A DNA stretch of 64,000 nucleotides from Naegleria gruberi (Eukaryota): NCBI GenBank assembly GCA_000004985.1, contig GG738858.1. One strand, written 5' to 3'. The notes beneath the pieces are model-generated. The model ran no database searches. It was not told where the DNA came from and saw only the letters and a program-made list of their open reading frames with translations. The position numbers and the translations under genes are program-made. Below are positions 21,482-54,446 of the stretch, piece by piece (position 1 is the stretch's first letter; the number at the start of each line of letters is the position of its first letter).

Positions 21482-21654
21482 TATTTAATACATTTTAATA
21501 TATTTTAATATTTAAAATAATTGTTTTTTTTAGTGTTTTTAAAAATCATTGTTGTAATCCATGATGAATTAATATGAGTGAAACTTTGCCAAGTCAATGT
21601 TGATGAGTCATAAAATGTTTCATGTGAAAGCAAACTTTCAAAAAGAGAAGGAAA

Positions 21655-21670: not shown

Positions 21671-22048
21671 NNNNNNNNNNNNNNNNNNNNNNNNNNNNNN
21701 NNNNNNNNNNNNNNNNNNNNNNNNNNNNNNNNNNNNNNNNNNNNNNNNNNNNNNNNNNNNNNNNNNNNNNNNNNNNNNNNNNNNNNNNNNNNNNNNNNNN
21801 NNNNNNNNNNNNNNNNNNNNNNNNNNNNNNNNNNNNNNNNNNNNNNNNNNNNNNNNNNNNNNNNNNNNNNNNNNNNNNNNNNNNNNNNNNNNNNNNNNNN
21901 NNNNNNNNNNNNNNNNNNNNNNNNNNNNNNNNNNNNNNNNNNNNNNNNNNNNNNNNNNNNNNNNNNNNNNNNNNNNNNNNNNNNNNNNNNNNNNNNNNNN
22001 NNNNNNNNNNNNNNNNNNNNNNNNNNNNNNNNNNNNNNNNNNNNNNNN

Positions 22049-24127
22049 TCTTTTATGATTTGATTTAAAATTTAAATTTAAAGAAAATAAATCTTCACTT
22101 TTTAAAATTTTAGAATTTCCATTTTTAATTAAAATATTTTTCATTGTTAAAGGTAAAATTAAATTTTTTAATTCATTTAAATTTAAATTTAAATTTTCTA
22201 AAATTTCAAAACATTTAATTTCCAAATTAGTATTAAATAATAATAAAATTAAACATTGATATTCATTTACATGTAAATCATATTCACTTCCAAATCTGGC
22301 AATTAATTGACATGTACCAAGTGAATGTATCCATTTTAATATTCTATTTTGAGTAATTGAATTATAAAAATTTAAAAATAAATTTAAACAATTATTAAAT
22401 TCATTTGGTAATTTTAATTTTAAATTTAATTGAATATAAATGGAAGGCCAAATTCCATTTGTTAAAATTTGTGGATTAAATTCTATTTTATTATTATCAT
22501 TAGTTATATTATTATTTCCATTTATATTATTAATTAAATAATTTTTAAATTTAAATTTTAATTCATTTGAATTATTTAAATCTTTAATCATTCCTTCTAA
22601 TTTAAAAGTAAATGAATTTCCCATTTTTAATTTTAATTTATAAATTAATTGTTTTTCCAATTCAATTTCTTGATTTTTAATTAATTTTTTACATAAAAAT
22701 CTTTTAAAAAATTCTAAAAATAAATCTTTATCATTTAAATAGGAAAATAATAATAAAATATTTTCAATATTTAAATTAAATTCAAAATATTTAACTAGAA
22801 TTTCAGGAAAATCTAAATTTTCATTTACTAAATTTGTAAATGACTGAAATAAAAATTGTTGAAAATAAAAATTATCTTTAAATTCAAATTTAATTAAATT
22901 ACTAAATTTAGTATTTAATTTTAATAAATTTGTAATATATTCATTTGAATCATTTTTAATTAATTCTTTTCCTTCTTTAATTATTACTTGTTTCATTGAA
23001 TTTGCTAATTTTGGTAATTCATTTACAATTTCAAATAATTTAAATAAGATTTTTAATTCTTTAATATTAAAATTATTAAATATTTCAATTGATTCTAATA
23101 ATAAAATTTCTAAATTATTTAAAATTAATTCTTGATTTAAATTTTTAAATAATTTTTTAATGGTTGAATTTGGAAAGAAAAAGGAATTTTTATCTTCAAA
23201 AATTAAAATATTTTCAATTTCTTTAAATAAATAATTATTTTCTAATTTCCATTTTTGATTTAATTGTTTAAAATATAAATTTGATAAATTTAAAAATTCA
23301 TTTTCAAAATCCAAGTAAATTGAATTTTCCTTATATAGATTTAATTCATTTGATAATTCAATTAAATATAAAATTCCATTTTTTAATAAATTTTCATTAA
23401 TAATTTCAAAATTTCTTTTTTTTTCATATTTTTCCAAAATTAATTTAGAAAAATTATTTTTAATTTCCAAATAAATAATTTTAAAATAATTTTCAATTGC
23501 AATTTGTTTTAAATTTGATTTTTGAAATTGTTCTATAAAAGATCTTTCAATGTAATTAAATAATTTTGTAAAATATTTAATAATAATTAAATAATCTTTC
23601 CATTTTTGTATACATTGATTTAAAAATAAATCTCCATTTAAATTTTTTAATTGATTTAAATTATTATTTAAAAATTTTATAATAATTTTTTCATATTTAA
23701 TATAAATTAATTCTTTTGAAATTTCTAAATTTAAACATAAATTATAAATGGATGAATAAATAATTAAATAGTCTTGACTTGATGAATTTAAATTTTCTAA
23801 AAATTGTAAAATTCCTTTTTTAATTATTTTCCATTGTTTTTTAAATAATTCATATTCATCATTGTTATTATTATCACTACTAGATGAATTATTTGAAATA
23901 CTATTGAAAAGTTTAATTTTCTTTTCTTGATGAATAAATTCATTACTTGTTGATTCAAAAGTTGATGATTGTAATAAATTAGAGTTGACTTGATGATGAT
24001 CGGAATGTGATGGTGATGATAAGGAACATGATGACAATGTATTATTGATAGTATCCTCATCATCATCTAAACAAGAAGATAATTGACAAGATTTTCGTTT
24101 TTTAGGAACATTTCTTCTGAAATTCAT
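22049..24127 (-). CDS. Cullin-family protein. The N-terminal and central part is present; the C-terminal winged-helix/neddylation end is lost in gap 21671-22048.
   Basis: ATG at 24125-24127. Cullin-repeat signature at the N-terminus ('WKIIKKGILQFLENLNSS...YLIIYSSIYNLCLN'). Cullin-homology region '...NYLINNINGN...LNLFLNFYNSITQNRILKWIHSLGTCQLIARFGSEYDLHVNEYQCLILLLFN...'. The ORF track's terminal '...TLEDPLSFSF' is vector-derived. Confidence 0.75.
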
Positions 24128-24220
24128 TTTTTATGTATTGGAAATTATTTACAATTCATCTCTTTCAATGACATTTAAATATCACCAAATGATGATGATG
24201 ATGATAAACAAGGATGAGAT

Positions 24221-31556: not shown

Positions 31557-32405
31557 ATGTCAACAACAACAACAATTAACAATATGGAAGTTAGCAAAAC
31601 TGCCCGCACTGTAATGATTGTTTGTATGCTATTGATGGGTATGACACTCATTCATGGCGCAACAACAGCCATTCAACTTAAAAGTTCAGGTGATACTGTG
31701 ACTGGATCCGTCAGCAAGGGAATTATGAATATGTATTATATTAATGTTGATAGTGTTAGTTCAATGTCTGTCCAATTCACCAACACTTATTCATCATCAT
31801 CTGTTAATGTTTATATCAAAGCTAATCAACCACCAACTACCTATAATTATGATAGTATTATTACCTATCCAGGTGTTTCAAAGAGTATTATTACATTGAA
31901 GAATTCAACTCTCACTCAACCATATTATATTGGTGTTTATGGTCTTGGTAGTTCTACTAATTATTATACTTTACAAGTTAGTGTCATCTCTGGACAAGAT
32001 ATTGCCAATTGGGTTATTGGTGTTATTGTTGCTGGTAAGTTGTTATCTTTACATTGATCTAATATCATACTCCTTTTTCATCTTTTCATACTAATCATCA
32101 TCATCTATTTAGCTGTTATTATCACCATTTTGTGTGCTGTTGCTGCTGTATTAATTCCAATCTTGATTTGTTGTGGTGTTCTCAGTTGCACAGTTTGTTG
32201 TGGAGCCGCAGCAGGTGCAGCAGCTGGATCAGCTGGATCATCAGGAACCTATCAACAAATTCATCACAATCATACCAATCATGTTCATCATTCTATTTCT
32301 CAACCAATTGCTCAACAACCAACTACTTATTATTCTGGTCAACAACCACCACAACAACAACAATACTATCCACAACCAACTTCTGCTAATTATCAAAAGG
32401 TTTAA
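31557..32405 (+). CDS. Single-pass membrane protein with a Cys-rich TM/juxtamembrane region and a His/Gln/Pro-rich cytoplasmic tail. Two exons: 31557-32034 and 32113-32405.
   Basis: Signal/anchor 'TVMIVCMLLMGMTLIHGA', a 130-aa ectodomain, then intron gtaagt...atttag. Then 'AVIITILCAVAAVLIPILICCGVLSCTVCCGAAAGAAAGS...QQPPQQQQYYPQPTSANYQKV*'. Confidence 0.55.
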
Positions 32406-33133: not shown

Positions 33134-35410
33134 ATGAAAAGAACATTAGAAGAAGGTTCAGAAGAACAATCTAAAAAACTCAAGATTGCCCAAGATAAGA
33201 ATCCACTCTCACCATATTGTGATGAAGAAAGTTCTGTTGGTATTAGTAAATATGTTGATGTAATTTTAAACGGAGATTCATTGGATATTTCTTTACCTCC
33301 ATTCACTGGTATTATGAAACAAAGATTTAGTGATTTTATTGTTCATGAAATTGATAGAAATGGAAAGGTTATTTATTTGACAAGTACAGAAATTCCTGAG
33401 AGTATCAAGGATAAAAGATCAAAGGATATTGATTTGGATCCAGAAGCTAAAAAGGAAAATGAAAGAAAAGGAATTGAAGAATTTAAATCAATTATTTCTG
33501 ATCAAACAATTGTTGCTGGTATTGAAGATTTCTTACAAAAGCATCAAGAAACTGAAGATTCACTTGTTGAAATTGTTAAACAAAGAAAAAAGATTGAAGA
33601 AGCTGATGTTCCAACACATTTAATTAAAGAAAATGATAAGAATAATAGATCAAAGATTCACAACATTATCAAGGAACATTTCAGTCATGTTATGGTTTCA
33701 GATACTTTAAATAAGGATAATGATCAATATGTTAGATTGAGATATCAATTCCAAAGTTTCACTCTTCAAACTTTATTCTTGAATAATCAAAATAATAGTA
33801 AAGCCAAGAAGAGAGAAAAGAGAGATAACAAAAAGAAGGGAGGAAGAAGAGAACAAAATAATCCAGCAACTCAATCATATTTCGATCCAAGACAATTTGC
33901 TTGGCCAAAAGAAAGACCAAATTATATTCAATTTGTTTTATATAAGGAAAATAGTGAAACCACTGAAATTATTGGTGAAATGTGTAGAATTTTGAAATTG
34001 AAACAAAAGAATTTCCAAATTGCAGGTACAAAAGATAAGAGAGGCATCACAACTCAAAGAGTTACTGGTTATCAAATTAGTGCTGAAAAATTAATGCAAG
34101 TTAATCAAAAATGTCACAAAATGGTTAAAGTTGGTAATTTTGAATATGTTGACAGACCATTGAAACTTGGTGATTTGAGTGGTAACAGATTTACACTTGT
34201 TTTAAGAGATTTAAAAATTCCAGAAGGAAGTCCATTTTCAAATAGAAATGTTGAAGATATTTTCAGAGAAAGAATTGAACAACTTAACAAGTATGGTTAT
34301 ATCAATTATTTTGGTATGCAAAGATTTGGTATTACTTACAATAGTGTTAAGAGAGAATATCATAGTGATTATCCAACTCATTTATTGGGTCAACATCTTT
34401 TGAAATCCAATTGGAAAACTTTAGCTAAAATTATTTTAATTGCTGGTATTCAAAATGTCAGAGATCAACGTGCTAAACAAACAATTATTGATTTTACAGA
34501 AGGAAAGATTTCAGCTGAACAATGTTATAATTCACTTCCAAAATTCAAATTTAATACTGAAAAGATCATGTTGAATTCCTATGTGAAAACATCTGAAAAT
34601 GATCATTTGGCAGCAATTCAAGCATTACCAATGAATTTATTATCCATGTATATTCATGCCTATCAATCACTTGTATATAATCATATGGTTTCATTGAGAA
34701 TTGAAAAATATGGATTGAAAGTTGTTGTTGGAGATATTGTTGTTTCTAGAAGTGAATTAAAGAGTTGTGAAGATCCAAAATTAACATTTGAAAGTCCAAT
34801 TACTAGAATTGAAACTGAAGAACAAGCTCAAAAATACAATATTGAAGATGTTGTAATGAGTATTCCAGGTTATGATATTCAATTCCCATCCACTGAATTT
34901 GTTAATAAGGAAACTTATTATAAATTCATGTTAGAAAATGGTGGAATTACTGAAGAAGATTATAAGAAACATCTTTCACAATATAGAACATTTGGTGCCT
35001 ATCGTTTCATGATTGAAAAAGCAAAAGATATTGAATTTGAATTTAAAGATTACAATCCAGAAACAAACAAATTAGTTGAAACTGATTATGATAATAACAT
35101 TACAAAGAAACCTTTGGAACAAATTCCATGTGAAAATACCAAAAAGGCAGCTATTATTTCCTTCTCTCTCAACTCTTCCAATTATGCAACCATGTTCGTT
35201 CGTGAACTAATTCGTCTTCCATCTGTTATTGATTGGAAATGGATTGAAAGTAATGGAAATCCACAACAACAAGAAGAACAACAAGAACAAGAACAAACAA
35301 ATGAAGATGATGAAGTTAATGATGAAGAACAATCACTTGCTACTGAACAAGATCATGATGAAACCAATCCACAAGAAGATGTTATTGCTGATGCTAATAT
35401 GTGTGAATAA
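33134..35410 (+). CDS. Pseudouridine synthase of the Pus7/TruD family. 758 aa, single exon.
   Basis: TruD catalytic motif 'FQIAGTKDKRGITTQRVTGY'. TruD-family blocks 'RFSDFIVHEID', 'YINYFGMQRFG'. Acidic Gln/Glu-rich C-terminus. Confidence 0.85.
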   Translation: MKRTLEEGSEEQSKKLKIAQDKNPLSPYCDEESSVGISKYVDVILNGDSLDISLPPFTGIMKQRFSDFIVHEIDRNGKVIYLTSTEIPESIKDKRSKDIDLDPEAKKENERKGIEEFKSIISDQTIVAGIEDFLQKHQETEDSLVEIVKQRKKIEEADVPTHLIKENDKNNRSKIHNIIKEHFSHVMVSDTLNKDNDQYVRLRYQFQSFTLQTLFLNNQNNSKAKKREKRDNKKKGGRREQNNPATQSYFDPRQFAWPKERPNYIQFVLYKENSETTEIIGEMCRILKLKQKNFQIAGTKDKRGITTQRVTGYQISAEKLMQVNQKCHKMVKVGNFEYVDRPLKLGDLSGNRFTLVLRDLKIPEGSPFSNRNVEDIFRERIEQLNKYGYINYFGMQRFGITYNSVKREYHSDYPTHLLGQHLLKSNWKTLAKIILIAGIQNVRDQRAKQTIIDFTEGKISAEQCYNSLPKFKFNTEKIMLNSYVKTSENDHLAAIQALPMNLLSMYIHAYQSLVYNHMVSLRIEKYGLKVVVGDIVVSRSELKSCEDPKLTFESPITRIETEEQAQKYNIEDVVMSIPGYDIQFPSTEFVNKETYYKFMLENGGITEEDYKKHLSQYRTFGAYRFMIEKAKDIEFEFKDYNPETNKLVETDYDNNITKKPLEQIPCENTKKAAIISFSLNSSNYATMFVRELIRLPSVIDWKWIESNGNPQQQEEQQEQEQTNEDDEVNDEEQSLATEQDHDETNPQEDVIADANMCE

Positions 35411-37210: not shown

Positions 37211-38824
37211 CTACTGATTATTAAAGCAAATAGTATCCATTCTCAAAATATTGATTACAATCTGGATGGCAGTCTGAATGATATGTTTTCTGTTGTAAAA
37301 AGATTCAAGAGGAATGTAAGTGGTTGATGCGTGTTGGAATAACTCACTTCTCTGTATCAATGAAAGAGGCTTTTCATTTAGCGATTGTATAGAACTTGTC
37401 GATTGAATAAACGTCACATATTCCTCATTATTTTTCTTGACTAGTTCTTCTAGTAGTTGAAAGAAGTATCTTTCGTTGAATTGGGGTAGTGAATTCCTCA
37501 ACAACATTTTTGGAATGGTGAGCAGTGACTTGGAGACGAGGGTCACAATAATCTTAAACAATTCATCCTCTTTGTCTTGGGCAAGTGTTTGTACAATATT
37601 AGATAAATGGCATTCAAATGAACCTCCTCCAATTATTGCTGAAATTTCTCCTCTTCCAATTACATGTTTTACATGTCTAATACAATTAATTATTTGAAAT
37701 TCAACTTGATTCAAGTTTTCTTGATTCAATGATTTCAATTGTAGTGTGGAAAATACATCATCATGCATACTATTAGGAAAGTCAAAAGTTAAATCACATT
37801 GCTGACCATTATTCTTGAAAATAGTTTTCATGTTTGAAAGACCATAATTATAGTCTTTGAGATTTTCAAAGCAAGTTGCTATTCCAGTCATTTTCAAAAT
37901 ATCAACAAGTTTGAATATCAAATCCATACTATTTGATTGATAGAAAAATACTGAAACGCCTCTTTCATTCAAAATTTGAATAAATCTTCTACTCAGTATG
38001 TTAAACTGTTTTCCAACAAGTATAATTACATTACAATCTATTTTCATGGCAATATTTTGATCCAAATCACAACTGAGGATACATATTTTTGATTGATTAA
38101 CCTTTTCCTGTTGCGAAATTCTTATATTCAAATTCTGAAGTGATTGTAATGTCAAAGAATTTTTAAATAATTTACTATCATCTATCTTTCCCAAAGATTT
38201 AGAAATATTTAAATTATATTCAGAAATTAAATGTAAATTCTTAAACCCATTTGATGAATATTCAAACCATTCATAAATTAAATTTTTTAAATGATTACTT
38301 TGAATTTGAATATTAATCATTGATTTGATAAAAATTGATAATTCCTCACTCGTTCCAATCTTAATTTTTAATAATGAATTATCTGAATTGTTATTAAACA
38401 TTCTTTCCATAATTTGATGTAAATAATTACAAATGGTATTAATATTTTCATACTTGTTTCCAAATTCTGAACAAATTAAATCCAACAACTCATAACTCAA
38501 CACTAAACATGAAATTGTTCCATCACAAAATTCACTCGCAACACCACTAAACAATGATATCAAATATTGTACTATTGGATTATTAGTTTTAATAAATTCT
38601 AAAATCTGACTTCCACTCCTCGTAATAATTTGACTCTGATGAACATCAGTAATTAATTTAAATTTACCATTCGGACCAAATGATGAGGAAACCTGATTTA
38701 CCAACTTGAACAATTCATTTCTAATTTGAATGGTGGTATTATTATTTAATGTTTTCTGATGACTCACTGATAGAACCATCACTGAATTCGGAGAAAGAAA
38801 TCTCAAGCCTTGATTTTGTTGCAT
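37211..38824 (-). CDS. Highly divergent group II chaperonin (TCP-1/CCT)-like protein, possibly MKKS/BBS-type.
   Basis: 'GPNGKFKLITDVHQSQIITRSGSQILEFIKTNNPIVQYLISLFSGVASEFCDGTISCLVLSYELL' matches the CCT equatorial-domain consensus 'GP.G.DK........ITNDGATIL..L...HP.AK.L.........E.GDGTTSVV.LA.ELL'. The ORF-track start 38845 is TTG; the first ATG (MQQNQ...) is at about 38824. Confidence 0.5.
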   Translation of the reverse strand: MQQNQGLRFLSPNSVMVLSVSHQKTLNNNTTIQIRNELFKLVNQVSSSFGPNGKFKLITDVHQSQIITRSGSQILEFIKTNNPIVQYLISLFSGVASEFCDGTISCLVLSYELLDLICSEFGNKYENINTICNYLHQIMERMFNNNSDNSLLKIKIGTSEELSIFIKSMINIQIQSNHLKNLIYEWFEYSSNGFKNLHLISEYNLNISKSLGKIDDSKLFKNSLTLQSLQNLNIRISQQEKVNQSKICILSCDLDQNIAMKIDCNVIILVGKQFNILSRRFIQILNERGVSVFFYQSNSMDLIFKLVDILKMTGIATCFENLKDYNYGLSNMKTIFKNNGQQCDLTFDFPNSMHDDVFSTLQLKSLNQENLNQVEFQIINCIRHVKHVIGRGEISAIIGGGSFECHLSNIVQTLAQDKEDELFKIIVTLVSKSLLTIPKMLLRNSLPQFNERYFFQLLEELVKKNNEEYVTFIQSTSSIQSLNEKPLSLIQRSELFQHASTTYIPLESFYNRKHIIQTAIQIVINILRMDTICFNNQ

Positions 38825-39203
38825 TTTTTCCCGCCCAAATTCCAAAGGCTATTATCCAATCCTAACTTTTCCAACAACATTGTTAACAACCATTATTGAA
38901 AATCAATCTTTTAAGAGTATGCAATAACTTTGAATTTCAAACCTCAAGTCATTCATTAAATTACCTTCCAAATAAGTTAGTCAATCGACATCTACCTGAT
39001 GATTTTGACACAATTCACTGAATCATTCACTTGCAACGCCCACAATATCCAACAGCAAGTCGCATAGTTCACGTCCCAGTATCAAAATCCACAAGCGAAG
39101 AGTTTGAACAACCAGCAAAAAAATAACGATAAACGCAAAAGGCTTTTTTCATCATTCTTCTATATTGGCCAATAATTCAATTTACGCGTAGTGTTTAGAA
39201 TAG

Positions 39204-42200
39204 ATGATGTCGGTTCAATCGATAGTGGGAGGAGAAGGTTCTTCTAGAAGGACCAGAGGATCAATTTATTCTTCAATGATTCTGATCATGTCAATTGTGA
39301 TGATGATGATGGTCATTTTGATGGGTCAACAGGAATATCATTCTTGTAGTGCTGTTGTGAATCCAACATGTTTTGGTTTTACCAATAGTTCAGGTTTTGA
39401 ATGTGTTCATCAATTGGGATCATGTATTAGTGATAATACTTGTTTCTTTTCTCCAACAACTTCAATCATTGGAATGGGTAGTAATACCTATTCACAACTT
39501 GGTATTACTGCTTCAAATTTTACTGATTATCCAATTAGAGTCAACTCTACGTACAATAGAATTTTCTATATCAGTAAAATGACAATGACTAATAGTTTAG
39601 TAACAGACTACAATGGAGATGTGTTAATGTCTTCAACTCAAGATCAAAAATTCATTCAAGCCTCCACTGCACTTCCTGCTTTGACAACTATGAATATTGG
39701 TGGTGATTTTCCAATTGCAATTTTAGGAGATGATACCACTACTGCTTTAATCACAACCACTAACAAGATTTATGTTTATGGCGATCAGACAAATAATAAT
39801 TTGGGTAGAGAAACTCTTGCTGATGAGGTTGTTTCCTCTCCTACTGCTTTGGGTTATCAGAATGTTGTTGATGCTTCTATTTCAAAATTGGGTGGATGTG
39901 CAATTCATAGCAATAATGGTGTTGACTTTAATATTACTATTTGGGGACCAGCTGCTAAAACCATGTCCAATGGAGTTGGTTATTTAGCATTGACTAATCA
40001 AGCCATTAATAATGATAATTCTCGACCATTTGTAAAATGTGAAATTATTTCTGCTAAGAATTCAAGTGGTTATGATGTTCCAGCAGTTTTTGTTATGGAT
40101 GATTTGGGTAATTTGTACTCTGGTGGAGCCAGAAGTAATTTGGAAGGTTGTAATCCAACCATCAAAAATGCATGTGACTTTGGTGAATGTTTTGCTGCTC
40201 AAAAGATTTTATCAAGTGTAGATTCATTCAAGTGTTCAGCCACTCATTGTGTTGCTGCAATTAATGGTACAGATATTTATGTTTGGGGAAATAACACAAA
40301 TGGTCAACTCGGTAATTCTGCCTATCTCCAAACACCAACAAGGATTCAAGTGTTTACTCCAGAAACTATAATTCAAGTAACTGCTACTAAGAAAAATATT
40401 TATGCATTAACTGAATCTGGTTTTATTTATGGTATTGGTAGTAATGAAAAAGGTCAATTGGGTCGTTCTCCATCTACTTTCCTCTCTAGAACCTATTTCA
40501 CTAAAATTGTAATTCCAGATCAAAGAAGAAAGATTTGGCATATGGCTGATGGTCCAAACAGTGAACATTTGTTGGCCTTTACTGGCTTCAAATGTGCATC
40601 TCAATACTCAGGTGGTGATTGTTCCACTCCTCTTTTCAACTGTGCAGGTTATGCTCCAAGCGATTCTGCTGTTTGTGGAGGTAATGGTATTTGTGCTGAT
40701 ACTGATTATTGTATCTGTTCTTCTGGATTTATTGGTCAATTCTGTAACACTACAGTTTCATCAGCTTGTTATGGAAAGCCAACAAATTTGGCTTGTAGTA
40801 ACAGAGGTTCTTGTATTGGTGTTGATAATTGTCAGTGTGCCTCACCATTCACTGGCAACCAATGTGAATTGTTCCAAAATGATTTTAATTTTGTTGCAAA
40901 TTTCTCACAATTACCAAACTCAAAGATTTATGATAACTTTAATATTTCTAATCTTGTTATCACCCCTACACTTGGTATTTCCAACCCAGCTTATAATACT
41001 ATTTGGGCCTATACTCAATATACCTCAAAGCTTTATTTGACAGGTCCATCTTCATACAGTTGGCAAGGTAGTCAATTATCATTCGATAAGAATTTTGTTA
41101 CCAATTTGAAACCAGGTTATTATGTTCTCAAATCAGAAAGTATTGCCAATGTTACCAATCAAATAATTGTTGTTAACAATACTTTTACATTTGAAAAGGT
41201 TTCTACATCTTTAACAAATCCACTTACATTAGATCAAACAGGTGTAATCTATGTATCACAGTTTGCATCTGTTGTTGTTTCAGCACTTATTACTGACCCA
41301 ACCTTTGATGCCTCAACATTTGATTATGACTGGCTTTCCAGTAATGATCAAGCTAATTATGTTTCTGTCAAAGCATCCACATCTATTGTCAATAATAATA
41401 AGATTACTTTTACCAATCTTGCATCTCAACTCCTTCCATCAAACTTTGCTGGTACCAATCACACTGTTTTTTTCAAAGTAACATACAATAGATATAGTGG
41501 CGACTCCAATTCATTTAGTGCTTATTTCACAGTTGTCATCAGTACAAAGGCCTATGCCCCAACTATTGCTCTAACTAGATTCCCATTTAGCAGTTATTTG
41601 TCAACAACAAGAGCAACAAGTCTTTCAGCTGTTTTGACCTTCACTGAAACTATTCCTTCAGATTTGGTTATTAGTTACTTGTGGACCTGTGATAAATTTA
41701 CTATTACAGATGCCACACAAGCTGCTTTAATTATCTATCCAGCTCAATTGACCATTGATACTTCATACCAATTCTCCCTGACTGTCACTGTATCATACAA
41801 GGGAGATGTTAACACATATGTTTCTACTTTAAATATCAAAACTCCACCTGCTTTACCAACATATTCTGTTAATACTCAAATACTCAGCATTTCTCCAAGC
41901 GATGGTAGTGGTGTTGCTCTCCTCACCTCTCACAATATCACAGTTGCTCCTCTTCCAGTTTCTGATACTAGAATTCTCAAGTATACTGTCAGATATTCTT
42001 TCAATGCAAGTGATGCTGCATCCTTTAAAGATTTATTATCTCTCAGTTCAACAATTTTGAATGATAGTGCTTATCTTCCATATGGTACTATGACACTTCA
42101 AATCTACATTGAAGACGAATATGGAAACAAATTGACAGCTGGCAACTTGGCTGTTTCAACTCAAAATATTGACTTTAGTTCACTTGCTAATATTATTAAC

Positions 42201-44732
42201 ACAAGAGATTTGTCTTTGAATCAAATTGAAACTACAGCAACAACACTCAATTCTGCTGCTGACCAAGATACTAAATCCCTAAGAGAAAAACTTTCAGAAA
42301 TTCTTATAGCCAAACTTAATGGTCAATCTTCTTCGACAAGTCAAGCTATTTTGAGTATTTCTCAAAAACCTTCAGATATCACTGCTAAAACTTCTCAACT
42401 CCTTGTTTCTGGTGTTACAACTTTGGGAGGTAATCTCAGATCAATTTATGCAGCAGGTGGTGAAGCAGATAAAATAGCTAGTGCCTTGACTGGTTCATTG
42501 TCAAACATTGTTGACAACAAGAATATTACTACAAATGAAACCAATAAGGATATTACCAATTCTTTGGCTTCTATCTCAAGAGAACTTGCCAAGATTTTAC
42601 TTCCATCCCAAACCTTGTCAATCAGCTCTAATAATTTCAATATCCTTGTTTTTGGATCTTCCTCTACAAAATCCAGTAATTATACTATTGAAGGATCATC
42701 AATTGGTACTCCTGACAACTTTGATGAATATCTTTCTGGTGCCACTTCATCACTTAACTCTGCCTCTAAGGCCTATGGTGTTGAACTTGTCTACTACAAA
42801 TCTTCATTGTTTGAATCAGTTGGAAAAGCCTCTAACAGTACAAGATCTAGTAATATTTTATCATTTGTTGTTAGTGCCTCCACATCATTTGGTAGTGAAA
42901 GTAGATCGACAGTTTCTATCAAGGGATTGACGAAACCTTTGGTGTTTACATTTACTGTAGCTAATGGTTCTACAAATGGATTCGAATGTAAATTTATTGA
43001 CGAAATTAATAATTATTGGAGTACAGATGGTTGTTCCTCTTTGATCCTCAATGACAACACTGTACAATGTTCATGCAATCACGCAACTAAATTCTCTACA
43101 TTCAGATTATTTACTCAAGTTGTATCCCAAGAAGAATATCTTGGAAGTACTGGTATTAGAATTGTCAATGTTATTTTTGGTGCTATTTATTTCTGTCTAG
43201 CTGCTTTGGTGTTCATTGCTTTGATTATTCTCAGAAACATCAATCCTGTAAGATCAAGATACATTGGTCCTTACATTGGTTTGATTGCAATTATGGTTGA
43301 CTCATTGATCATTTCATTCATCCAAAATATTGTAGTTTTATCTTTGGATAAGGGTATATCCAATTCAACTGCCGATATTGCCAATATTAGAAGAATCAGC
43401 GACGGTTTTAACTATTTCAATGTAATCCTTGTCATTCCTCTTTACTTGACCGCTTTCTTCACTTTCTTGGTCCAAATTGTTAGATACTTTATCAAGAGAC
43501 ACATGTATGAATTCATGTCAAATAAGGTTCTTTTCAATGCTCAAATTTATAGAGCTATTACTTCCAAGATTGCCTTTTGGGTTACCTTGCTTTCTTCTTT
43601 GGCAATAATTATGGCTTATTACACCATTTGGGTTGGTTTGGGAGGAGGAAATGTTTTCGTTGTTAGTACAAACACTGCTCAACAAGATAAGGAAAGAATG
43701 ACATTTACATATATTACTTCCCTTTCCTACTTTGGTCTTGCATGGATAATTGCTATCTGTATGGTTGTTATTGCAGCTTGGGATCTTTTCTACATGAATC
43801 GCCATTTATTCACTTCATGTTGTTATTCTCAAGAAGATTTGTTGAAGAAATCCTCTAGCAATCTTAATCAAACTAGAAATAGAGTTGAAAAACTTCTCAA
43901 TATGTTATCTAGAACAAAGAAACAAAAAGTTCAACTTGGAAAGTCTGCATGGTTGACTGTCCCTCAAGTTTACTACTTTACCGATGACAATTTATATTTC
44001 AGATTGGAAATTCACGTCTTTATTACAGCCTTTGTTTTCCTCACCATCAACTATCTTGCTGGTATTGCTGATATTTCAGTAATTTCAGTTGGATTAACCA
44101 ATGCTGGATCCCGTTTGGCTCCTCAAATTGTTTCCCTAATTGCTGGTATTCTCTACACATTCTGTTTGATTGCTGCTTTTGGTGGTGTGATTGTTGTCTC
44201 TTACCTTACTGAAAGACGTAGAAAGCAGTACCATAAGGATGTAGCTCCTCAATCAAAGATGGATGAAGATGAATTGAACATTGTATTGAGTGATAGATTT
44301 GGTAAACCATTGTTTGTTGAATTCTGTCAAAAAGAATTCTCACTTGAAGTAAGTTTTGGAAATTTTAATTTTATTAACACATTTAAATAGAATGTTTATT
44401 TCTATGATGCAATTACTGATTTCCTTAGAAGTGCTGATTCTAAATCAGATGCAGATGTTAAGAATTCCATTTCTGACATGTTTGAAAAGTATATCAAGAC
44501 TGGTTCTGAATATGAAGTCAACTTGCCTAGCGCCTCAAAGAAGGCCTTTATCACAACACACGAGTGTTCACAACCATCCTCCAAGATGGTTAAGGATATG
44601 TTGGACAATGTAATGATTTCAGTCATGTACAATTTGAAGGATACTTACAGTAGATTCTCAATGACTGAAGAATACAAGCTCTACCAACAAAGTAGAGACA
44701 ACATCAGTATGTTGGAAAACAACTTCTTGTAA
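39204..44732 (+). CDS. Large receptor with RCC1-like repeats, EGF-like Cys modules, an S/T-rich stalk, GAIN/GPS, 7TM and a C-terminal RGS domain. Two exons: 39204-44348 and 44391-44732.
   Basis: RCC1-type repeats: 'VYGDQTNNNLGRE', 'VWGNNTNGQLGNS', 'GIGSNEKGQLGRS'. EGF-like: 'CAGYAPSDSAVCGGNGICADTDYCICSSGFIGQFC', 'CSNRGSCIGVDNCQCASPFTGNQC'. GPS motif 'CKFIDEINNYWSTDGCSSLILNDNTVQCSCNHATKFS'. Seven hydrophobic helices span 43140-44230. The RGS domain is split by a 42-nt intron (gtaagt...aaatag): '...PLFVEFCQKEFSLE|NVYFYDAITDFLRSADS...EYEVNLPSASKKAFITT...YSRFSMTEEYKLY'. Confidence 0.75.
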
Positions 44733-44914: not shown

Positions 44915-47047
44915 ATGTCCACACTCACGCCAAACAACTACTTGAAGCGTAAGCGAAGTGATGAAAACTCACCAACGGACCAAGAGAATGTAAATCCTAA
45001 CAAGAAGACTAGTAAAATCCCAGTACTAAAACACTCTAATAGCTCCTCCTCTCTCAACTCATCAACACTTTCCACCAACAAAACCACACCAGTTAAACCA
45101 ACCTTACCAACAAGAACCAATTCAATCCGAGCAAATGCCACTTCTAAGATTAATATGCCAAAGCCTACATCTACACCTTCCACTAGAGTCTCACACTATC
45201 AAAAAACTACACCAAATAGTACAAATCCAAATGCCAGACAATTCGGTTCTGTCTCTGGTAGAATGCTTGCTCCAGGAAGAACAACCCAACAACAACAGCA
45301 GCAACAACAACAACTTCAACAACAATCGAAGGTTGAACTTGAACAAACCAAGTCTCAACTTTCACTTGTTTCCGAAGAAAATAACCACCTCAAGACTAAA
45401 ATCGATGAACAAACCAATCAACTCAAAGATTTGGGTCAGTTAGAAGAAAGAACAAAGTTCCTCTCCACTCAAGCAAACAAATTCCAAGAAGAAAACTTCC
45501 AATTGAAGTCTACAGTCACATCCCAAGAAATTGAAATTAGTGCCATGAAAGGTGTTCAAGAAAGATTACAATCTGATAATATTGATTTGAGAGTTAAAGT
45601 CAGCTCTTTGGAAAAGGAAGTCTCAATGGAAAAGAAGCAAGCAGAAATGGACAAGGCCACCATTAAAATTCAATACGAAAGTGAGCTTAGAATTCAAAAA
45701 GAAACATTCGAACAGCAAATTACTGAAATTACTGAAATTAAGGATAAAGAGCTTTCTCTCACTAAAGACAGACTCACTAGGGAAATTACCAAGTACAAAA
45801 CTGATTTGGAAAAGACTCAATTTGACTTGAGCTTATCAGTTGAAGATGCCAACTCCAAAGCAGAAAAGATTAGATCTCTTGAAGAAATTATCAGACAACA
45901 AGCAGAAGATATCAAATCTCTTGAGAGTAAGAGACATAAGGATGAAAATGAAAGAAGAAGATTACACAATCTCATTCAAGAACTTAAAGGTAATATCAGA
46001 GTTTATTGTAGAGTCAAGCCTGCCCAAAACTTGAAATGTATAGATTATCCAGAAAATGATGTTGATGAAAGATCCATCAGTGTTCAAGAGGAATCCAGAA
46101 CATCTGCAACTGGTGCTTCAGTTGATGGCAAGAAGGCCTTTTTCGAATTTGACAAGGTATTCAAACCAAACTCAAAGCAAAGTGAAATTTTCCACGAAAT
46201 TTCTCAACTTGTACAAAGTGCACTTGATGGTTTCAAGGTTTGTATCTTTGCCTATGGTCAAACTGGTTCTGGTAAGACTTTTACTATGGAAGGTCCACCA
46301 AGAGATGTAATCTCAAAGCTTGATATTGAATCACAAAAAGAAGTTGTTGGTATGATTCCAAGAAGTGTTGACCAAATCTTTGAATCAGCTGAAAGACTCA
46401 AAGAAAGAGGATGGACTTTCTCAATCGTTGCTAGCTTTGTAGAAATTTACAATGAAACTATTAGAGATTTGTTAGACTCCACAACTAAGGACAATGTAAA
46501 ACATGAAATTAAGCATACTAAAGATGGCTCTACATCAGTAACTGGTATCAAATACGTCAACGTTTCTGGTCCACAACACGTTCAAGATTTGTTAAAGATT
46601 GCTTCCAAGAATAGAGCTGTTGCAGCAACTCAATCAAACGATAGATCTAGTAGATCACATTCTGTCTTTACTTTGCAAATTACAGGAAGAAATGATATCA
46701 CTGATCAAACAACTCAAGGAGCATTGAATTTAGTCGATTTGGCAGGTAGTGAAAGAATTGGTACCAGTCAACCAGCTAACGGTGAAAGAGTTAAAGAAAC
46801 CCAAAACATTAATCTCAGTTTGACATGCTTGAGTAATGTTGTAAATGCTCTTTTGAATAAGTCATCACATGTTCCATACAGAGACTCTAAATTGACCTAC
46901 CTCCTTCAAAATTGTTTAGGCAAAGATGCCAAGACTTTGATGTTTGTTAATATTGACCCAGATAATGTAAATGAATCTCTTCAATCACTTCGTTTTGCTG
47001 CTAAGGTAAATTCATGTGAAGTTAATGCCTCAAGAAAGGTAAAGTAG
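44915..47047 (+). CDS. Kinesin-14 (C-terminal motor, minus-end-directed type). 710 aa.
   Basis: N-terminal Ser/Thr/Gln-rich tail, then coiled coil. Neck 'KGNIRVYCRVKP'. P-loop 'GQTGSGKTFTM'. Switch I 'SSRSHSVF'. Switch II 'DLAGSE'. The motor sits at the C-terminus. Confidence 0.88.
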   Translation: MSTLTPNNYLKRKRSDENSPTDQENVNPNKKTSKIPVLKHSNSSSSLNSSTLSTNKTTPVKPTLPTRTNSIRANATSKINMPKPTSTPSTRVSHYQKTTPNSTNPNARQFGSVSGRMLAPGRTTQQQQQQQQQLQQQSKVELEQTKSQLSLVSEENNHLKTKIDEQTNQLKDLGQLEERTKFLSTQANKFQEENFQLKSTVTSQEIEISAMKGVQERLQSDNIDLRVKVSSLEKEVSMEKKQAEMDKATIKIQYESELRIQKETFEQQITEITEIKDKELSLTKDRLTREITKYKTDLEKTQFDLSLSVEDANSKAEKIRSLEEIIRQQAEDIKSLESKRHKDENERRRLHNLIQELKGNIRVYCRVKPAQNLKCIDYPENDVDERSISVQEESRTSATGASVDGKKAFFEFDKVFKPNSKQSEIFHEISQLVQSALDGFKVCIFAYGQTGSGKTFTMEGPPRDVISKLDIESQKEVVGMIPRSVDQIFESAERLKERGWTFSIVASFVEIYNETIRDLLDSTTKDNVKHEIKHTKDGSTSVTGIKYVNVSGPQHVQDLLKIASKNRAVAATQSNDRSSRSHSVFTLQITGRNDITDQTTQGALNLVDLAGSERIGTSQPANGERVKETQNINLSLTCLSNVVNALLNKSSHVPYRDSKLTYLLQNCLGKDAKTLMFVNIDPDNVNESLQSLRFAAKVNSCEVNASRKVK

Positions 47048-47472: not shown

Positions 47473-49071
47473 ATGACTGAATTAACACCACAACAAATTA
47501 GTGTCAGCTTTGTTACTCAATATTACTTTATTTTGTCATCAAATACTAAAAACCTTTTCAAATTTTACAAGACCGAATCTGAGATGACTCATGAACACTC
47601 AACTGTTGTTAAGCAATTACCCGGAAATATTAATCCTAATGCAGCAGTTGGAGTTGATAATATTGAAAAGAAGATTTCAACCCTAGGCTATGAAGAATGT
47701 AAAGTCAAATTGACCTATGTTGACTCACAACGCTCATTGAATGGAGCTGTTTTTGTTTTTGTAGAAGGTGTTATGACAAGACAAGTTGACCAAAAGGAAA
47801 TGAATTTCACTCAAACTTTCCTTTTGGCTGAACAAGAAAATGGATACTTTGTTAGAAATGATTATCTTCGTTTCATTCCTGATACATCTAACATTCCAAC
47901 CACTGTTCAAGCTACTCAAAGCAATCCTCCACTTGCTGAATCATCAACCACTGCTTCTGTTTCCAGCACTTCAAGCAGTGAACATCACTCTAAATCACAA
48001 AATGGTCATCAATTATCCTTCTCTCTTAATCCATCCACTGTTAACATTGTTTCCTCTACTACCAACGGTTCTCACTCTCCAAGAAGTGAAGCCAGTTCAA
48101 CTGCTGCTACAGCTGGTGCCAGTTCTGTTTATGGTGGAGCAGAAGAAAATCAATTAGATGATGAAGCTGAGGAAGAAGAAATTACAGTAGTTGAAAAGCC
48201 ACAACAAAATCAACAACCAACTCAAGCTAAATCAACTACTAGTGTACCTGCTGAAAATAAGGAACCACACGGAACAATTTCTTATGCTGCTGCTGCTAGT
48301 GGTAGAGATTATAAGAATGAATCATCTGAACAAACTCAACCAAAACACAAGTCTGGAAAGAAACACAACAAGGAAAATAAGGAACACAAGACTGAACAAC
48401 ACAAGACCGAAAACAAGGAACACAAGACTACCACTGAACAACAACAACACAATAAGGAACACAAAGAACACAAGGAACACAAAGATCACAAAGAACACAA
48501 GGAACATAAGGACCACAAGAATGAACATCATAAGAATGAACACAAGAAACCAGCCACTGCTCCAGTAACTGGTGAACAAAAGCAAGTATCAGCTGAAAAG
48601 AAGGAAAAGACTTTCCGTGGAAAGGATCATCCACTTAATAAGCATGCTATCTATGTTCGTGATCTTCCTGTTGGCACTAAGGATAGTGATTTGAAGGAAG
48701 CTTTTGCAGCTTATGGTAGCATTATTGATATTAACAACAAGTCTGGTAAGGATCAATCATACAATAAGTATGCTTTGATTTTCTTTGAAAAACAACAAAG
48801 TGTTGATGAAGTATTGAAGAATCCAGCTGTCTCAATCAATAATCACCAATGTCCAATCACAAAATACCAAAGAAAGCCAAAACAATACCCAAGAACTCCA
48901 AACCAACCAACATCTACAACCACCACCAGTACACCAACAAAGACTGAGACCACTACTACTCCTGTCACCAATAATACTCAACAACCACGTAATAATAATA
49001 ACAATAATCGTGCTCCAAGACAAAAGTATACTCGTGCCACCAGTAATGAAAGTGAATCAGAAAAGAAGTAA
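47473..49071 (+). CDS. NTF2-like domain plus RRM protein (G3BP-like) with a His/Lys-rich tandem repeat in the linker.
   Basis: NTF2 fold start 'QQISVSFVTQYYFILSSNTKNLFKFY'. RRM 'HAIYVRDLPVGTKDSDLKEAFAAYGSIIDIN...YALIFFEK'. Linker 'HKEHKTEQHKTENKEHKTT...HNKEHKEHKEHKDHKEHKEHKDHKNEHHKNEHKK'. Confidence 0.8.
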   Translation: MTELTPQQISVSFVTQYYFILSSNTKNLFKFYKTESEMTHEHSTVVKQLPGNINPNAAVGVDNIEKKISTLGYEECKVKLTYVDSQRSLNGAVFVFVEGVMTRQVDQKEMNFTQTFLLAEQENGYFVRNDYLRFIPDTSNIPTTVQATQSNPPLAESSTTASVSSTSSSEHHSKSQNGHQLSFSLNPSTVNIVSSTTNGSHSPRSEASSTAATAGASSVYGGAEENQLDDEAEEEEITVVEKPQQNQQPTQAKSTTSVPAENKEPHGTISYAAAASGRDYKNESSEQTQPKHKSGKKHNKENKEHKTEQHKTENKEHKTTTEQQQHNKEHKEHKEHKDHKEHKEHKDHKNEHHKNEHKKPATAPVTGEQKQVSAEKKEKTFRGKDHPLNKHAIYVRDLPVGTKDSDLKEAFAAYGSIIDINNKSGKDQSYNKYALIFFEKQQSVDEVLKNPAVSINNHQCPITKYQRKPKQYPRTPNQPTSTTTTSTPTKTETTTTPVTNNTQQPRNNNNNNRAPRQKYTRATSNESESEKK

Positions 49072-50880: not shown

Positions 50881-51007
50881 ATAATTTAACCCATGTAAAC
50901 AATTTGAATTCATTATTGGTGGATATTGTTTGAGAAGATTTGAAATCTAGTTCATTATTTGGAGGTAATTTTAAGGATTCAACATTTCCTAGTTTTACAA
51001 TAAAAAG

Positions 51008-51124
51008 ACTACAGCACCACAGGTTCCCAAGTTGTCTCCAACCTCAGTACTGATGTGGCTCGACGATGCTTAACTTCTCAAATCGGACGGGATGAGGTGC
51101 ATTCATCGTGATATGGCCGTAGCC
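51008..51124 (-). rRNA. 5S ribosomal RNA gene (about 117 nt), followed on the minus strand by a T-run (plus 'taaaaa' at 51002-51007) as Pol III terminator.
   Basis: Reverse complement: 'GGCTACGGCCATATCACGATGAATGCACCTCATCCCGTCCGATTTGAGAAGTTAAGCATCGTCGAGCCACATCAGTACTGAGGTTGGAGACAACTTGGGAACCTGTGGTGCTGTAGTC'. This matches universal 5S blocks: ACGGCCATA, CATCCCGTCCGAT, GAAGTTAAGC, AGTACT, GGGAGAC-like, TGGGAA, GTGCTGTAG. The 5'/3' ends are complementary (helix I). Confidence 0.8.
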
Positions 51125-52457: not shown

Positions 52458-54446
52458 ATGATGTATCAGCCAACAAAAAGTAAATACGAAACATTGCACA
52501 ATCATGATGCAGTACAAGGAAACAGCAAACAATCATCAAACTTACTGCCATCACTTCAAAATTGCAATAAGAGCAAACAACCTTGTATTTGCTCAACTAC
52601 AACTTCAACTTCACAAATTCAATCAAATATTTACCTCCAACAACAACCTTCCCGATCTAATGGTTATTTCAGTAATATGGACCATATGATTAATAGTAAT
52701 TCATCCTATCAATTGTACAGACAACATTCCTTCTTAGATTCAGTCCTTACTTCCAACAATAACAATAATGGACTTCTCGAGCATGATAACACATTTCCAG
52801 ATAATTATTCTACCAACATTCCAGGTACTGAACAAATATTAATGATATTAATGTGCAATGGTATGACCCCTGAATTCGATCAATTTAATGGTAAATTCAA
52901 AACTCCAACCTACAAGTACAGTACAAATAGATTAAGAACAGAAAATTTAAACACCAACAGTAGCAATGGTACAACACCATCCTCTTCTTCTTCCACAACA
53001 CCATCCTCTAGTATATCCTCCCCTAATTGTAATGATAATCTTAAATCTCACCTTGAGAGCTCAAATACAATAACAATCATATCCAGAGAAGATATTTGCA
53101 ACGTGAATGCTACTTGTAATTCTCCACAAAGAGAATCAATCTCTAGTAACAATCAACAATATCTTTCAGAATCTTCAAATAAGCTTGATGAAAACTTAAC
53201 CCTTCCTCCTTCTCCATGCGTTTCAGACATTTCCGAATCGGAACAAGTTAAAATTCCAGAAGAAATAATTTTCCAACAAATGACCACCACCACTCCTACG
53301 ACAGACCAAAACCTCATTCCTCACAAGATTGAATCTGTTATCCATGGTTCAACCGAATCATGTCGTATTTCTGATAGTCATGGCGAAACTACCGATGAAT
53401 CCAGTGATGAAGAGGATGCTCCAAAAGCAAAATATCCAAAAAGAGAAGCAAGAGACCAACAAAAAACAATGAAACAAGACCTATCACTTGATTCTGCAGA
53501 ATCATCTGGTTTTGTTGTTAAACCTACCAGGACTTACAGTTTCAGAGATGCCACTATCTATATTCTTTCTCAAATTGGTAAACCAATGACCGCAGTTGAC
53601 ATTACTAAGAACATATTTGATAACAAGATGGTTAAAAGCGCAGGAAAAACTCCTGAAAGAACTGTTGCAGCCATGATTTATCAAGAAATGAAAAAGAAGA
53701 AAAACACCTCTGAGTTTGCTTTATTTGGCTCTGGTCTCTTTGGTTTAAGTGCTTGGAAGAGTGATGACCACACAAGCCAAGATACTGCCAGTGTTTCCAC
53801 TGACGCCTCCTTGTCATCAGTTGACAGAGCTGATAAGAAGAAAAAGGAAAAGAGGAAAAAGAGGAAACTTGCTACTAAACCAGAGAAGGAATCAGAGCTT
53901 TCAGAAGCAGAAAGTGATAATGGGATGTCCGTTTCAAAAAGAAAACCTAGAAAAATGCACAAACACAAACAAGCTTGTTCTTCTTCAAGTGAGGAAACCT
54001 CAATGACAGATTCTGAAGAAACAACAAGTAGTAAGAAGAGAAAACACAATGAATCAGAAGAAACAGCAATTATTATGACAGAGGAAGCTCTTTTCAAAAC
54101 CTACATTTCCAAACTCAAAAAGAAGGATCAAACAGAATCCGATGAAGATGAATGTTTTGTTTGTAAGAATGGTGGTGATTTGATTTGTTGTGATTATAGA
54201 GGATGTAGAAAGGTTTATCATGCTTCATGTGTTGGTCTTAAAGAAGTGCCTCAAGGAGATTGGATTTGTCCTCATCACTATTGTGCAGAATGTAAAAAGA
54301 AATCATTCAGGAGCAAATCTTCTAAGAAGTGTTTCAGTTGTCCATATAGTGTTTGTGGTGAACATGGTTCTCTATTGAAAGATAAGATAGATAACGACAA
54401 GTATGTTTGCACAAAATGTAAACCAATGTGTGAGAACATTAAATAA
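52458..54446 (+). CDS. HARE-HTH plus C-terminal PHD-type zinc-finger chromatin protein. 662 aa.
   Basis: HARE-HTH-like 'YSFRDATIYILSQIGKPMTAVDITKNIFDNKMV...ALFGSGLFGL'. PHD/Cys-rich 'ECFVCKNGGDLICCDYRGCRKVYHASCVGLKEVPQGDWICPHHYCAECKK...CFSCPYSVCGEHG'. Acidic/basic Ser-rich linkers. Confidence 0.7.
   Translation: MMYQPTKSKYETLHNHDAVQGNSKQSSNLLPSLQNCNKSKQPCICSTTTSTSQIQSNIYLQQQPSRSNGYFSNMDHMINSNSSYQLYRQHSFLDSVLTSNNNNNGLLEHDNTFPDNYSTNIPGTEQILMILMCNGMTPEFDQFNGKFKTPTYKYSTNRLRTENLNTNSSNGTTPSSSSSTTPSSSISSPNCNDNLKSHLESSNTITIISREDICNVNATCNSPQRESISSNNQQYLSESSNKLDENLTLPPSPCVSDISESEQVKIPEEIIFQQMTTTTPTTDQNLIPHKIESVIHGSTESCRISDSHGETTDESSDEEDAPKAKYPKREARDQQKTMKQDLSLDSAESSGFVVKPTRTYSFRDATIYILSQIGKPMTAVDITKNIFDNKMVKSAGKTPERTVAAMIYQEMKKKKNTSEFALFGSGLFGLSAWKSDDHTSQDTASVSTDASLSSVDRADKKKKEKRKKRKLATKPEKESELSEAESDNGMSVSKRKPRKMHKHKQACSSSSEETSMTDSEETTSSKKRKHNESEETAIIMTEEALFKTYISKLKKKDQTESDEDECFVCKNGGDLICCDYRGCRKVYHASCVGLKEVPQGDWICPHHYCAECKKKSFRSKSSKKCFSCPYSVCGEHGSLLKDKIDNDKYVCTKCKPMCENIK

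Follow-up and report, generated by a model that had tools for sequence, protein, structure and literature searches.

A stretch of 64,000 nucleotides (nt) from contig GG738858.1 of Naegleria gruberi (assembly GCA_000004985.1; the whole stretch is referred to below as the window) raises the question of whether one gene on its plus strand, at positions 39204-44732, encodes a receptor carrying its own GTPase-activating protein (GAP) module, and whether such a protein is new. A first reading made from the letters alone (the sequence-only reading) had proposed that RCC1-like repeats, EGF-like modules, a GPS motif, a seven-transmembrane (7TM) region and an RGS domain are joined in this one gene, with the RGS domain split by a 42-nt intron. 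The analysis bore out this architecture and placed the locus among known genes: it is the already annotated N. gruberi gene NAEGRDRAFT_65525, whose product is a so far uncharacterised member of a family of heterolobosean receptors already in the literature, and the description was accurate while the claim of novelty was wrong. The order of domains is a signal peptide or anchor, an RCC1-like propeller, two EGF-like modules, a beta-rich region, a GAIN domain with its GPS motif, the 7TM region and a C-terminal RGS domain.

Splicing of 39204-44348 to 44391-44732 on the plus strand gives a product of 1828 amino acids, as follows:

Exon 1: 39204..44348, plus strand; amino acids 1-1715, from the listing of open reading frames (ORFs) and the sequence; amino acids 36-1715 are identical to XP_002679252.1.
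Intron: 44349..44390, plus strand; 42 nt, phase 0, predicted spliceosomal type, with a GTAAGT donor, a branch-like element (TTATTAAC) and an ATAG acceptor.
Exon 2: 44391..44732, plus strand; amino acids 1716-1828 and a TAA stop, holding most of the RGS domain.

The public entry for this gene (XP_002679252.1, EFC46508.1, UniProt D2V9Q9; 'predicted protein', 1793 amino acids) matched amino acids 36-1828 of this product at 1793 of 1793 residues. The RefSeq/UniProt model has used the same splice since the release of the N. gruberi genome, and its start codon is the sole difference.

The claim that the RGS domain can be read only after removal of a gtaagt..atag intron held, as the RGS match (amino acids 1693-1811) spans the junction and orthologues are continuous there. 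The junction falls within the most conserved RGS motif (EFSLE/NVYFYDAITDF in N. gruberi, the slash marking the junction), and the reading runs on without a break in N. fowleri (EFSLENIYFYDAV; also given as EFSLENIYFYDAVSEV), in the metagenome orthologue P0001 (EFSLENFDMYF), which is one uninterrupted 1822-residue ORF on its contig, and in a Willaertia paralogue (EFRVENLFCF). At the DNA level, the sequence of P0001 on its metagenome contig (L001) passes from TCTCTTGAA directly into AACTTTGAC (CTTGAA/AACTTT) with no insert, and human RGS18, RGS7 and RGS8 align over the junction gap-free. The 42-nt intron sequence itself, up to and including TAG, is GTAAGTTTTGGAAATTTTAATTTTATTAACACATTTAAATAG; its G+C content is 17% against 35% for the gene, and the features by which spliceosomal introns are recognised were all found, namely GT-AG boundaries, a locally typical length and restoration of both the frame and the conserved domain upon removal. 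Two more putative short GTAAGT..YAG introns in the window, of 48 nt (61812-61859) and 78 nt (32035-32112), restore long ORFs. The GTAAGT hexamer was not more frequent than expected by chance (9 and 12 copies in the whole window versus 13.7 expected per strand for its 40-kb non-gap part), and thus the case for the intron rests on conservation and not on the donor motif. We conclude from the sequence that 44349-44390 is very probably a genuine intron.

Read without splicing, the locus gives the two separate ORFs that had been noticed in the ORF listing, one of 1728 amino acids from the ATG at 39204 and one of 84 amino acids from 44478. The last three bases of the intron are an in-frame TAG, a stop if the intron is retained, so that an unspliced gene would encode a 1728-residue receptor ending at 44388-44390, with 44391-44732 either untranslated or used as the separate 84-residue frame. 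We regard this as extremely improbable. The unspliced reading is an intact ORF, the intron length is divisible by three, and the 84-residue product, identical to the corresponding stretch of exon 2, is on record in the protein collection as a gene called in prokaryote fashion; yet the RGS domain would end after 23 residues, whereas N. fowleri, P0001 and Willaertia all conserve the protein encoded by exon 2, in the same frame as exon 1, the orthologous DNA is uninterrupted, the canonical GTAAGT/AG sites have comparable introns close by, and the RefSeq model removes the same 42 nt. Removal of the intron would be required for any GAP-competent protein, and its retention would add 13 residues before the stop and leave a receptor without most of the RGS domain. 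The small ORF at 44478-44732 (exon 2 from its first Met) stands in the protein collection as a separate entry, P0143, called in prokaryote style from an assembly in ENA; this entry represents a cluster that also contains the full-length N. gruberi protein, and it shows how short introns can spawn spurious small 'proteins'. The two other introns, when removed on the plus strand, extend a small membrane protein with a poly-Q/P tail (32035-32112) and a protein with a GHSLGS serine-hydrolase-like motif (61812-61859).

With the intron removed, the C-terminal domain could be examined as a whole.

RGS domain: 44280..44678, plus strand; amino acids 1693-1811, with the intron between E1715 and N1716.

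Pfam models were judged against their curated cut-offs throughout. The RGS model (PF00615) matched the spliced product with 48.5 bits against a cut-off of 23.9, covering profile positions 4-115 of 117 and so the entire nine-helix domain, and among the sequences of the PDB the domain matched RGS18 (E 3.5e-7, as a single sequence), RGS10 (E 1.9e-16, with the family profile), RGS7 and RGS8. Both profiles on which the sequence-only reading had staked its proposal, RGS and GPS, were thus found above their cut-offs. All three motifs, EFSLEN, EVNL (within EYEVNL) and KDTYSRF, are preserved; in an hmmalign alignment of 61 family members made against the family model, the source of the conservation figures given here, their columns show 80-99% conservation. 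These motifs hold the residues that in RGS4 touch the G-alpha switches in the published complex with Gi-alpha-1, namely E87/N88 (SLE-N), N128 (EVN), and D163 and R167 (KDTYSRF). By its sequence, then, this is a canonical RGS domain in which the predicted G-alpha contacts are kept.

The next question is what stands at the outer end of the membrane region, where a GPS-type motif had been seen directly before seven hydrophobic helices. This was confirmed (Pfam GPS at amino acids 1262-1298, transmembrane (TM) segments at 1313-1667), and it understated what is there, since a complete GAIN domain is present:

GAIN subdomain A (helical): 42174..42599, plus strand; approximately amino acids 991-1132.
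GAIN subdomain B (beta-sandwich, including the GPS): 42612..43109, plus strand; approximately amino acids 1137-1302.
GPS motif: 42987-43097, plus strand; Pfam match at amino acids 1262-1298.
Predicted GPS scissile bond A1294/T1295: 43083..43088, plus strand; CSCNH-A/T-KFSTFRLF, placed by alignment to the GPS consensus.
Candidate tethered peptide: the strand downstream of the predicted bond (TKFSTFRLF); as a synthetic peptide, TKFSTFRLFTQVV.

The Pfam GPS model (PF01825) scored 31.1-33.7 bits against a cut-off of 22.5. A family profile of 27 sequences aligned to residues 623-967 of latrophilin-3 (E 8.1e-15) and also matched the crystallised GAIN chain of latrophilin-1 (E 1.1e-8) as well as ADGRG6, G1, G2, G3, F1, D1, E5 and CELSR1. 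An AlphaFold2 model of amino acids 940-1715 made with the 27-sequence alignment reached a confidence score (pLDDT) of 77 and showed a helical and a beta subdomain followed by seven long helices; a run with a 4-sequence alignment (pLDDT 41) was unusable, and the 27-sequence model was used instead. When this model was searched with Foldseek, the ten best PDB matches were GAIN domains of adhesion G-protein-coupled receptors (GPCRs), among them BAI3 (E 4.7e-11) and the CD97 holoreceptor, aligned over 706 columns. Together, these data indicated that the full GAIN fold of about 320 residues is present, with the GPS strands integrated into it, and not the GPS motif alone. The motif itself reads C1262...W1272...C1277...C1289-S-C1291-N-H1293-A1294/T1295-K-F-S-T-F-R-L-F, in which the Cys, Trp and His residues, Thr+1, Phe+3 and Phe+6 are at least 90% conserved in the family.

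The membrane region that follows was characterised in the same way.

7TM domain: 43140..44204, plus strand; amino acids 1313-1667, with a long basic third intracellular loop at amino acids 1530-1600.

Hydropathy gave exactly seven hydrophobic segments after the GPS, plus one at the N-terminus, and the charges of the loops fit a topology with the N-terminus outside and the C-terminus inside (24 Lys+Arg inside versus 8 outside), in agreement with the proposed seven helices. The family has conserved motifs of its own: R..QP.KSR follows TM1, Q..RY closes TM3 on the cytoplasmic side, DD.LYFR.E precedes TM6 and FGG lies within TM7. The comparison with adhesion GPCRs, which had been drawn from the layout, proved right for the input module and the overall arrangement, with a GAIN domain immediately N-terminal to a 7TM bundle of GPCR fold, and failed for the 7TM core, which is unrelated in sequence to 7tm_2 (PF00002): the suggested 7tm_2 search of the spliced product gave no match, no 7TM Pfam family matched any of 27 family members at E<=0.001, and the sequence matches to adhesion GPCRs end at the start of TM1. 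The 7TM core is thus modelled as a generic GPCR fold, and at the level of sequence it appears to have no link to class B/adhesion receptors or to any known 7TM family.

Three regions make up the remainder of the ectodomain, which in total contains 21 N-glycosylation sequons and 31 Cys residues:

RCC1-like beta-propeller region: 39456..40583, plus strand; approximately amino acids 85-460, from Pfam and PDB sequence matches.
Two EGF-like Cys-rich modules: 40584..40871, plus strand; approximately amino acids 461-556, with sub-threshold Pfam matches and visible six-Cys spacing.
Beta-rich middle region: 40872..42173, plus strand; approximately amino acids 557-990 (about 430 residues), conserved in orthologues.

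The RCC1-like repeats were recovered by Pfam RCC1 (PF00415; 52.6 bits, cut-off 21.7) and by PDB sequence matches to UVR8 (E 1.3e-23), HERC2 (5e-20), RPGR (1e-16) and RCC1 (9e-13); the whole-domain model WD40_RLD covered profile positions 40-285 of 363 with 91.7 bits, under its cut-off of 150. The EGF assignment stood in part. Two six-Cys EGF-like modules are visible, but the Pfam EGF models stayed under threshold on this protein (EGF_Teneurin 20.7 versus 24.3 bits; EGF_2 17.9 versus 22.1 bits); the same models match paralogues strongly, up to E 5.6e-53. In the middle region (amino acids ~557-990) no Pfam match was obtained and a REJ/PKD assignment was sought and not found; two other family members carry REJ domains at this position.

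Is this architecture new? The sequence-only reading had held that the combination is uncommon and that 7TM-RGS proteins were not known with GAIN/GPS and RCC1/EGF modules, and here it was mistaken in the main. A HMMER search with a GPS-7TM-RGS profile against 1.84 billion representative sequences gave 743 matches at E<=1e-3 and 66 at E<=1e-30, and about 60 of the latter (800-2665 amino acids) span GPS, 7TM and RGS when aligned to the family model. In a separate homologue search with the full-length receptor as query, bacterial RCC1 proteins swamped the matches. All named members come from N. gruberi, N. fowleri, N. lovaniensis or Willaertia magna and the remainder are metagenomic, and N. gruberi has at least four paralogues besides NAEGRDRAFT_65525. 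When 26 homologues were scanned with Pfam, RGS was found in 24, GPS in 22, EGF in 10, RCC1 in 6, NHL in 2, REJ in 2 and PKD in 1; the window's own fragment (amino acids 940-1715), scanned alongside, also matched GPS. Hence the GPS-7TM-RGS architecture is common within Heterolobosea, and by sequence NAEGRDRAFT_65525 belongs to this family. In N. fowleri, Bosch et al. (2022; J Biol Chem, PMC9283941) reported on 28 '7TM RGS' proteins; they noted GPS motifs and ectodomains of EGF-like or lectin type, 'reminiscent of the adhesion GPCRs', in 'a number' of these, and showed that Nf 7TM RGS2-4 have RGS domains that act as selective GAPs on Nf G-alpha 2/3/5/7 and bind the GDP-AlF4- transition-state form. 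De Mendoza et al. (2014; PMC3971589) had noted 7TM-RGS architectures in many bikonts. The combination with GPS and EGF/lectin modules was therefore in print in 2022, and only the RCC1 propeller goes unmentioned in that study (PMC9283941). An ancient GAIN domain outside animals is likewise not new, since Araç et al. (2012; PMC3321182) showed GAIN domains in Tetrahymena and Dictyostelium. What the locus adds to the literature consulted on the family is the whole GAIN fold, the subgroup with an RCC1 propeller, a GPCR fold with no class B link and a probable truncation of the annotated start.

The N. fowleri orthologue of the gene, FDP41_004521 (1778 amino acids), is 64% identical over the GPS-7TM-RGS part. 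A more distant relative is represented by the metagenome contig L001 already mentioned (ENA ERZ27315067, contig k141_1803788, G+C 40%), which at 470-8270 holds P0001, the intron-less receptor orthologue (44% identity at 97% coverage), and after it an orthologue of a kinesin-14. The 710-residue ORF just downstream of the receptor gene in the window (44915-47047) is an exact match to the N. gruberi kinesin-14 (XP_002679253.1, D2V9R0), which speaks against a dictyostelid origin of the DNA, a possibility raised by its AT-richness, poly-Q and N-rich proteins. The kinesin of L001 is 67% identical to this kinesin-14, so that a heterolobosean relative, itself unsampled, keeps the order of the two genes. 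The 64% identity to N. fowleri and this synteny in a more distant relative argue for purifying selection on the receptor.

How might such a protein work? We favour, with moderate confidence, the view that NAEGRDRAFT_65525 is a surface receptor in type I orientation whose membrane-held GAP would be tuned by the ectodomain through the GAIN-7TM junction. The ectodomain, predicted to be secreted, ends in the complete GAIN domain, whose last strand runs directly into the 7TM bundle of GPCR fold. By analogy with the N. fowleri paralogues, the RGS domain would be a membrane-held GAP for one or more Naegleria G-alpha subunits, keeping them GDP-bound. Binding to the ectodomain, or mechanical load on it, would be passed via the GAIN/GPS junction to the 7TM bundle, possibly preceded by autoproteolysis at HA/T and exposure of the TKFSTFRLF strand, and a resulting change in where the RGS domain sits, how available it is or how long it stays at the surface would release or tighten a brake on G-protein signalling. 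This would amount to AtRGS1-type logic with an adhesion-receptor-type input.

Several observations weigh against this reading. The P-1 residue is Ala in this orthologue group and Thr in most of the 61 aligned members, and not Leu, and in cleaved animal GAIN domains the P-1 Leu sits in a hydrophobic pocket (PMC3321182). Autoproteolysis is thus uncertain because the residue is Ala in place of a pocket-held Leu, and self-cleavage at HA/T is plausible from the motif. The strand TKFSTFRLF fits the T-x-F-x-x-L-M pattern at T+1, F+3 and F+6, with Arg at position +7, which is hydrophobic in most other members. In the membrane region, the isolated TM segment gave no match to 7tm_2 or any other 7TM Pfam model at E<=10, and a family profile of the 7TM part alone found no GPCR among PDB sequences at E<=10; with no sequence resemblance detected to any GPCR class, a tethered-agonist mechanism is not transferable by homology. 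On the output side, FDP41_004521 was not among the four RGS domains tested in 2022, as judged from the coordinates and lengths of the constructs and the C-termini encoded by the primers.

The residues at the GPS would also suit a protein that does not switch, that is, a constitutive membrane-anchored GAP and/or an adhesion molecule with an uncleaved GAIN stalk and a 7TM region serving as mere anchor, with no dependence on a ligand. Some animal GAIN domains, for example that of BAI3, are indeed uncleaved (PMC3321182), and a large ectodomain rich in repeats and sequons is typical of adhesion proteins. We consider such a static role improbable. In the 61 members, conservation reaches at least 90% for the cleavage-triad residues His and Thr, for the two Cys pairs, for the Trp and for F+3/F+6, and the 7TM motifs QP.KSR, Q..RY, DD.LYFR.E and FGG are conserved far beyond the needs of a passive anchor.

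Alternatively, the protein could activate G-proteins as a conventional GPCR, with the 7TM bundle acting as guanine nucleotide exchange factor (GEF) for a slow-exchanging G-alpha and the fused RGS domain only sharpening termination (kinetic scaffolding). The GPCR fold of the bundle fits this, and the family-wide Q..RY at the cytoplasmic end of TM3 and the long third intracellular loop are typical coupling surfaces. Slow-exchange N. fowleri G-alpha subunits 'presumably require' a GEF, yet a single cAR-like candidate GPCR is available, and both fast and slow types of G-alpha interact with 7TM RGS proteins (PMC9283941). Even so, GEF activity has been shown for no 7TM-RGS protein, in the plant and Trichomonas precedents the G-alpha partners are self-activating (PMC3971589, PMC9283941), and no sequence similarity to the G-protein-activating GPCR classes was found; we therefore regard an activating role as unlikely, though one that retains some weight. 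A GAP tuned through the GAIN-7TM junction remains the reading that we favour.

With regard to the biology of these amoebae, more than 30 G-alpha and 229 RGS genes have been reported for N. gruberi (PMC5784254), whereas N. fowleri has few conventional GPCR candidates, with one cAR-like gene (PMC9283941). A large G-protein toolkit with few conventional GPCRs makes the GPS-7TM-RGS proteins the likeliest surface sensors, and for N. fowleri they have been considered as components of a druggable pathway. Bosch et al. left open whether the proteins are receptors and how extracellular cues alter their GAP activity (PMC9283941), and the present locus, with its complete GAIN domain, offers a clean example from a non-pathogenic species for asking whether GAIN autoproteolysis and a tethered strand regulate a GAP. 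Tentatively, a GAIN/tethered-strand input may be able to drive a GAP output, and, since the 7TM core cannot be recognised as class B, the junction of GAIN and 7TM may either predate the split of the GPCR classes, which would place it near the last eukaryotic common ancestor, or have arisen independently in Discoba; we put this forward as a possibility of rather low probability. If the junction did predate the split, the input logic of the 'adhesion GPCR' would have existed before the adhesion GPCR family and would reach beyond it. The interest that remains after the novelty claim has fallen lies in this union of a GAIN input, a non-class-B 7TM region and a GAP output, and, on the practical side, in the probable correction of a start codon.

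That correction, the only practical one to the public annotation, concerns the N-terminus.

N-terminal signal peptide or signal anchor (predicted): 39204..39335, plus strand; RRTRG followed by a 20-residue hydrophobic run.

An in-frame TAG lies directly upstream of the first ATG (39204), and the hydropathy maximum of the segment is at amino acids 19-44. The annotated start, M36 (39309-39311), lies inside this hydrophobic segment, and the orthologues P0001 and P0124 (W. magna) have signal-peptide-like N-termini right before a conserved CFGF motif. M36 therefore probably cuts the signal peptide short, and we infer that the ATG at 39204, or a Met codon before M36, is the likelier start, because M36 stands in the middle of the hydrophobic segment and the orthologues have full signal-peptide-like N-termini. 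Use of 39204 adds RRTRG and the rest of the signal-peptide-like segment to the RefSeq model. The model of the N. fowleri orthologue FDP41_004521 seems truncated at its N-terminus too, with a start only 15 residues before the CFGF motif.

From 24 kb on, genes lie close together in the window and introns are few and short, in keeping with N. gruberi. Several neighbours have no obvious functional tie to the receptor, and these are:

33134-35410, plus strand: TruD pseudouridine synthase.
37211-38845, minus strand: TCP-1/Cpn60-family chaperonin-like ORF that begins with TTG, and thus has its true start or an intron elsewhere.
47473-49071, plus strand: NTF2+RRM (G3BP-like) protein.
52458-54446, plus strand: HARE-HTH protein.

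A 5S ribosomal RNA gene lies between protein-coding genes at 51006-51124 on the minus strand (Rfam RF00001, 105.4 bits, full length). Further upstream, 6307-24200 has a G+C content of 13-28% excluding Ns (13.4% in 22001-24000) against 29-35% downstream, and contains five assembly gaps and, at 21638-24127 on the minus strand, a cullin-family ORF (Pfam Cullin, E 7.6e-96) whose product is extremely rich in N, K, I, L and F. This block may belong to the scaffold and be rich in A+T to an unusual degree, or it may mark a place where DNA from another source was joined in during scaffolding.

Among known systems, Arabidopsis AtRGS1 shares with NAEGRDRAFT_65525 seven TM helices followed by a cytoplasmic RGS domain, and the working model for both is a receptor with a GAP output on G-alpha; AtRGS1, however, is essentially without an ectodomain and has no GAIN/GPS, and the plant protein is regulated by phosphorylation-driven endocytosis. 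The adhesion GPCRs of animals (ADGRL/latrophilin, ADGRB/BAI, ADGRG6, ADGRE5/CD97 and CELSR) have a modular adhesive ectodomain in common with it, as well as a complete GAIN/GPS abutting TM1, the Cys/Trp/His/Thr pattern, a T-x-F-x-x-F strand at the position of the tethered agonist and a 7TM bundle of GPCR fold. They differ in that the Naegleria 7TM region gives no 7tm_2/class-B signal and P-1 is Ala/Thr and not Leu, and none of them is known to carry an RGS (GAP) output domain, which NAEGRDRAFT_65525 does. Polycystin-1 and the PKD-REJ proteins likewise place GAIN/GPS before the first TM helix of a membrane protein that is not class B, and two members of the Naegleria-type family have REJ domains; the polycystins, in contrast, span the membrane with 11 helices, carry a PLAT domain, have a channel as partner and lack an RGS domain, and NAEGRDRAFT_65525 has no REJ match. 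In the animal class C orphans GPR158 and GPR179 with RGS7-G-beta-5, the RGS domain sits on a polypeptide of its own that is recruited in trans, and these receptors have an unrelated ectodomain and lack a GAIN domain. The closest counterparts are the N. fowleri 7TM RGS proteins (Nf 7TM RGS1-4 and 24 others), which form one sequence family with NAEGRDRAFT_65525 and have the same large EGF-like ectodomain, GPS, 7TM region and C-terminal RGS domain; NAEGRDRAFT_65525 is distinguished by its place in an unassayed sub-lineage, by an RCC1-like propeller at the start of the ectodomain and by a GPS set within a full GAIN fold.

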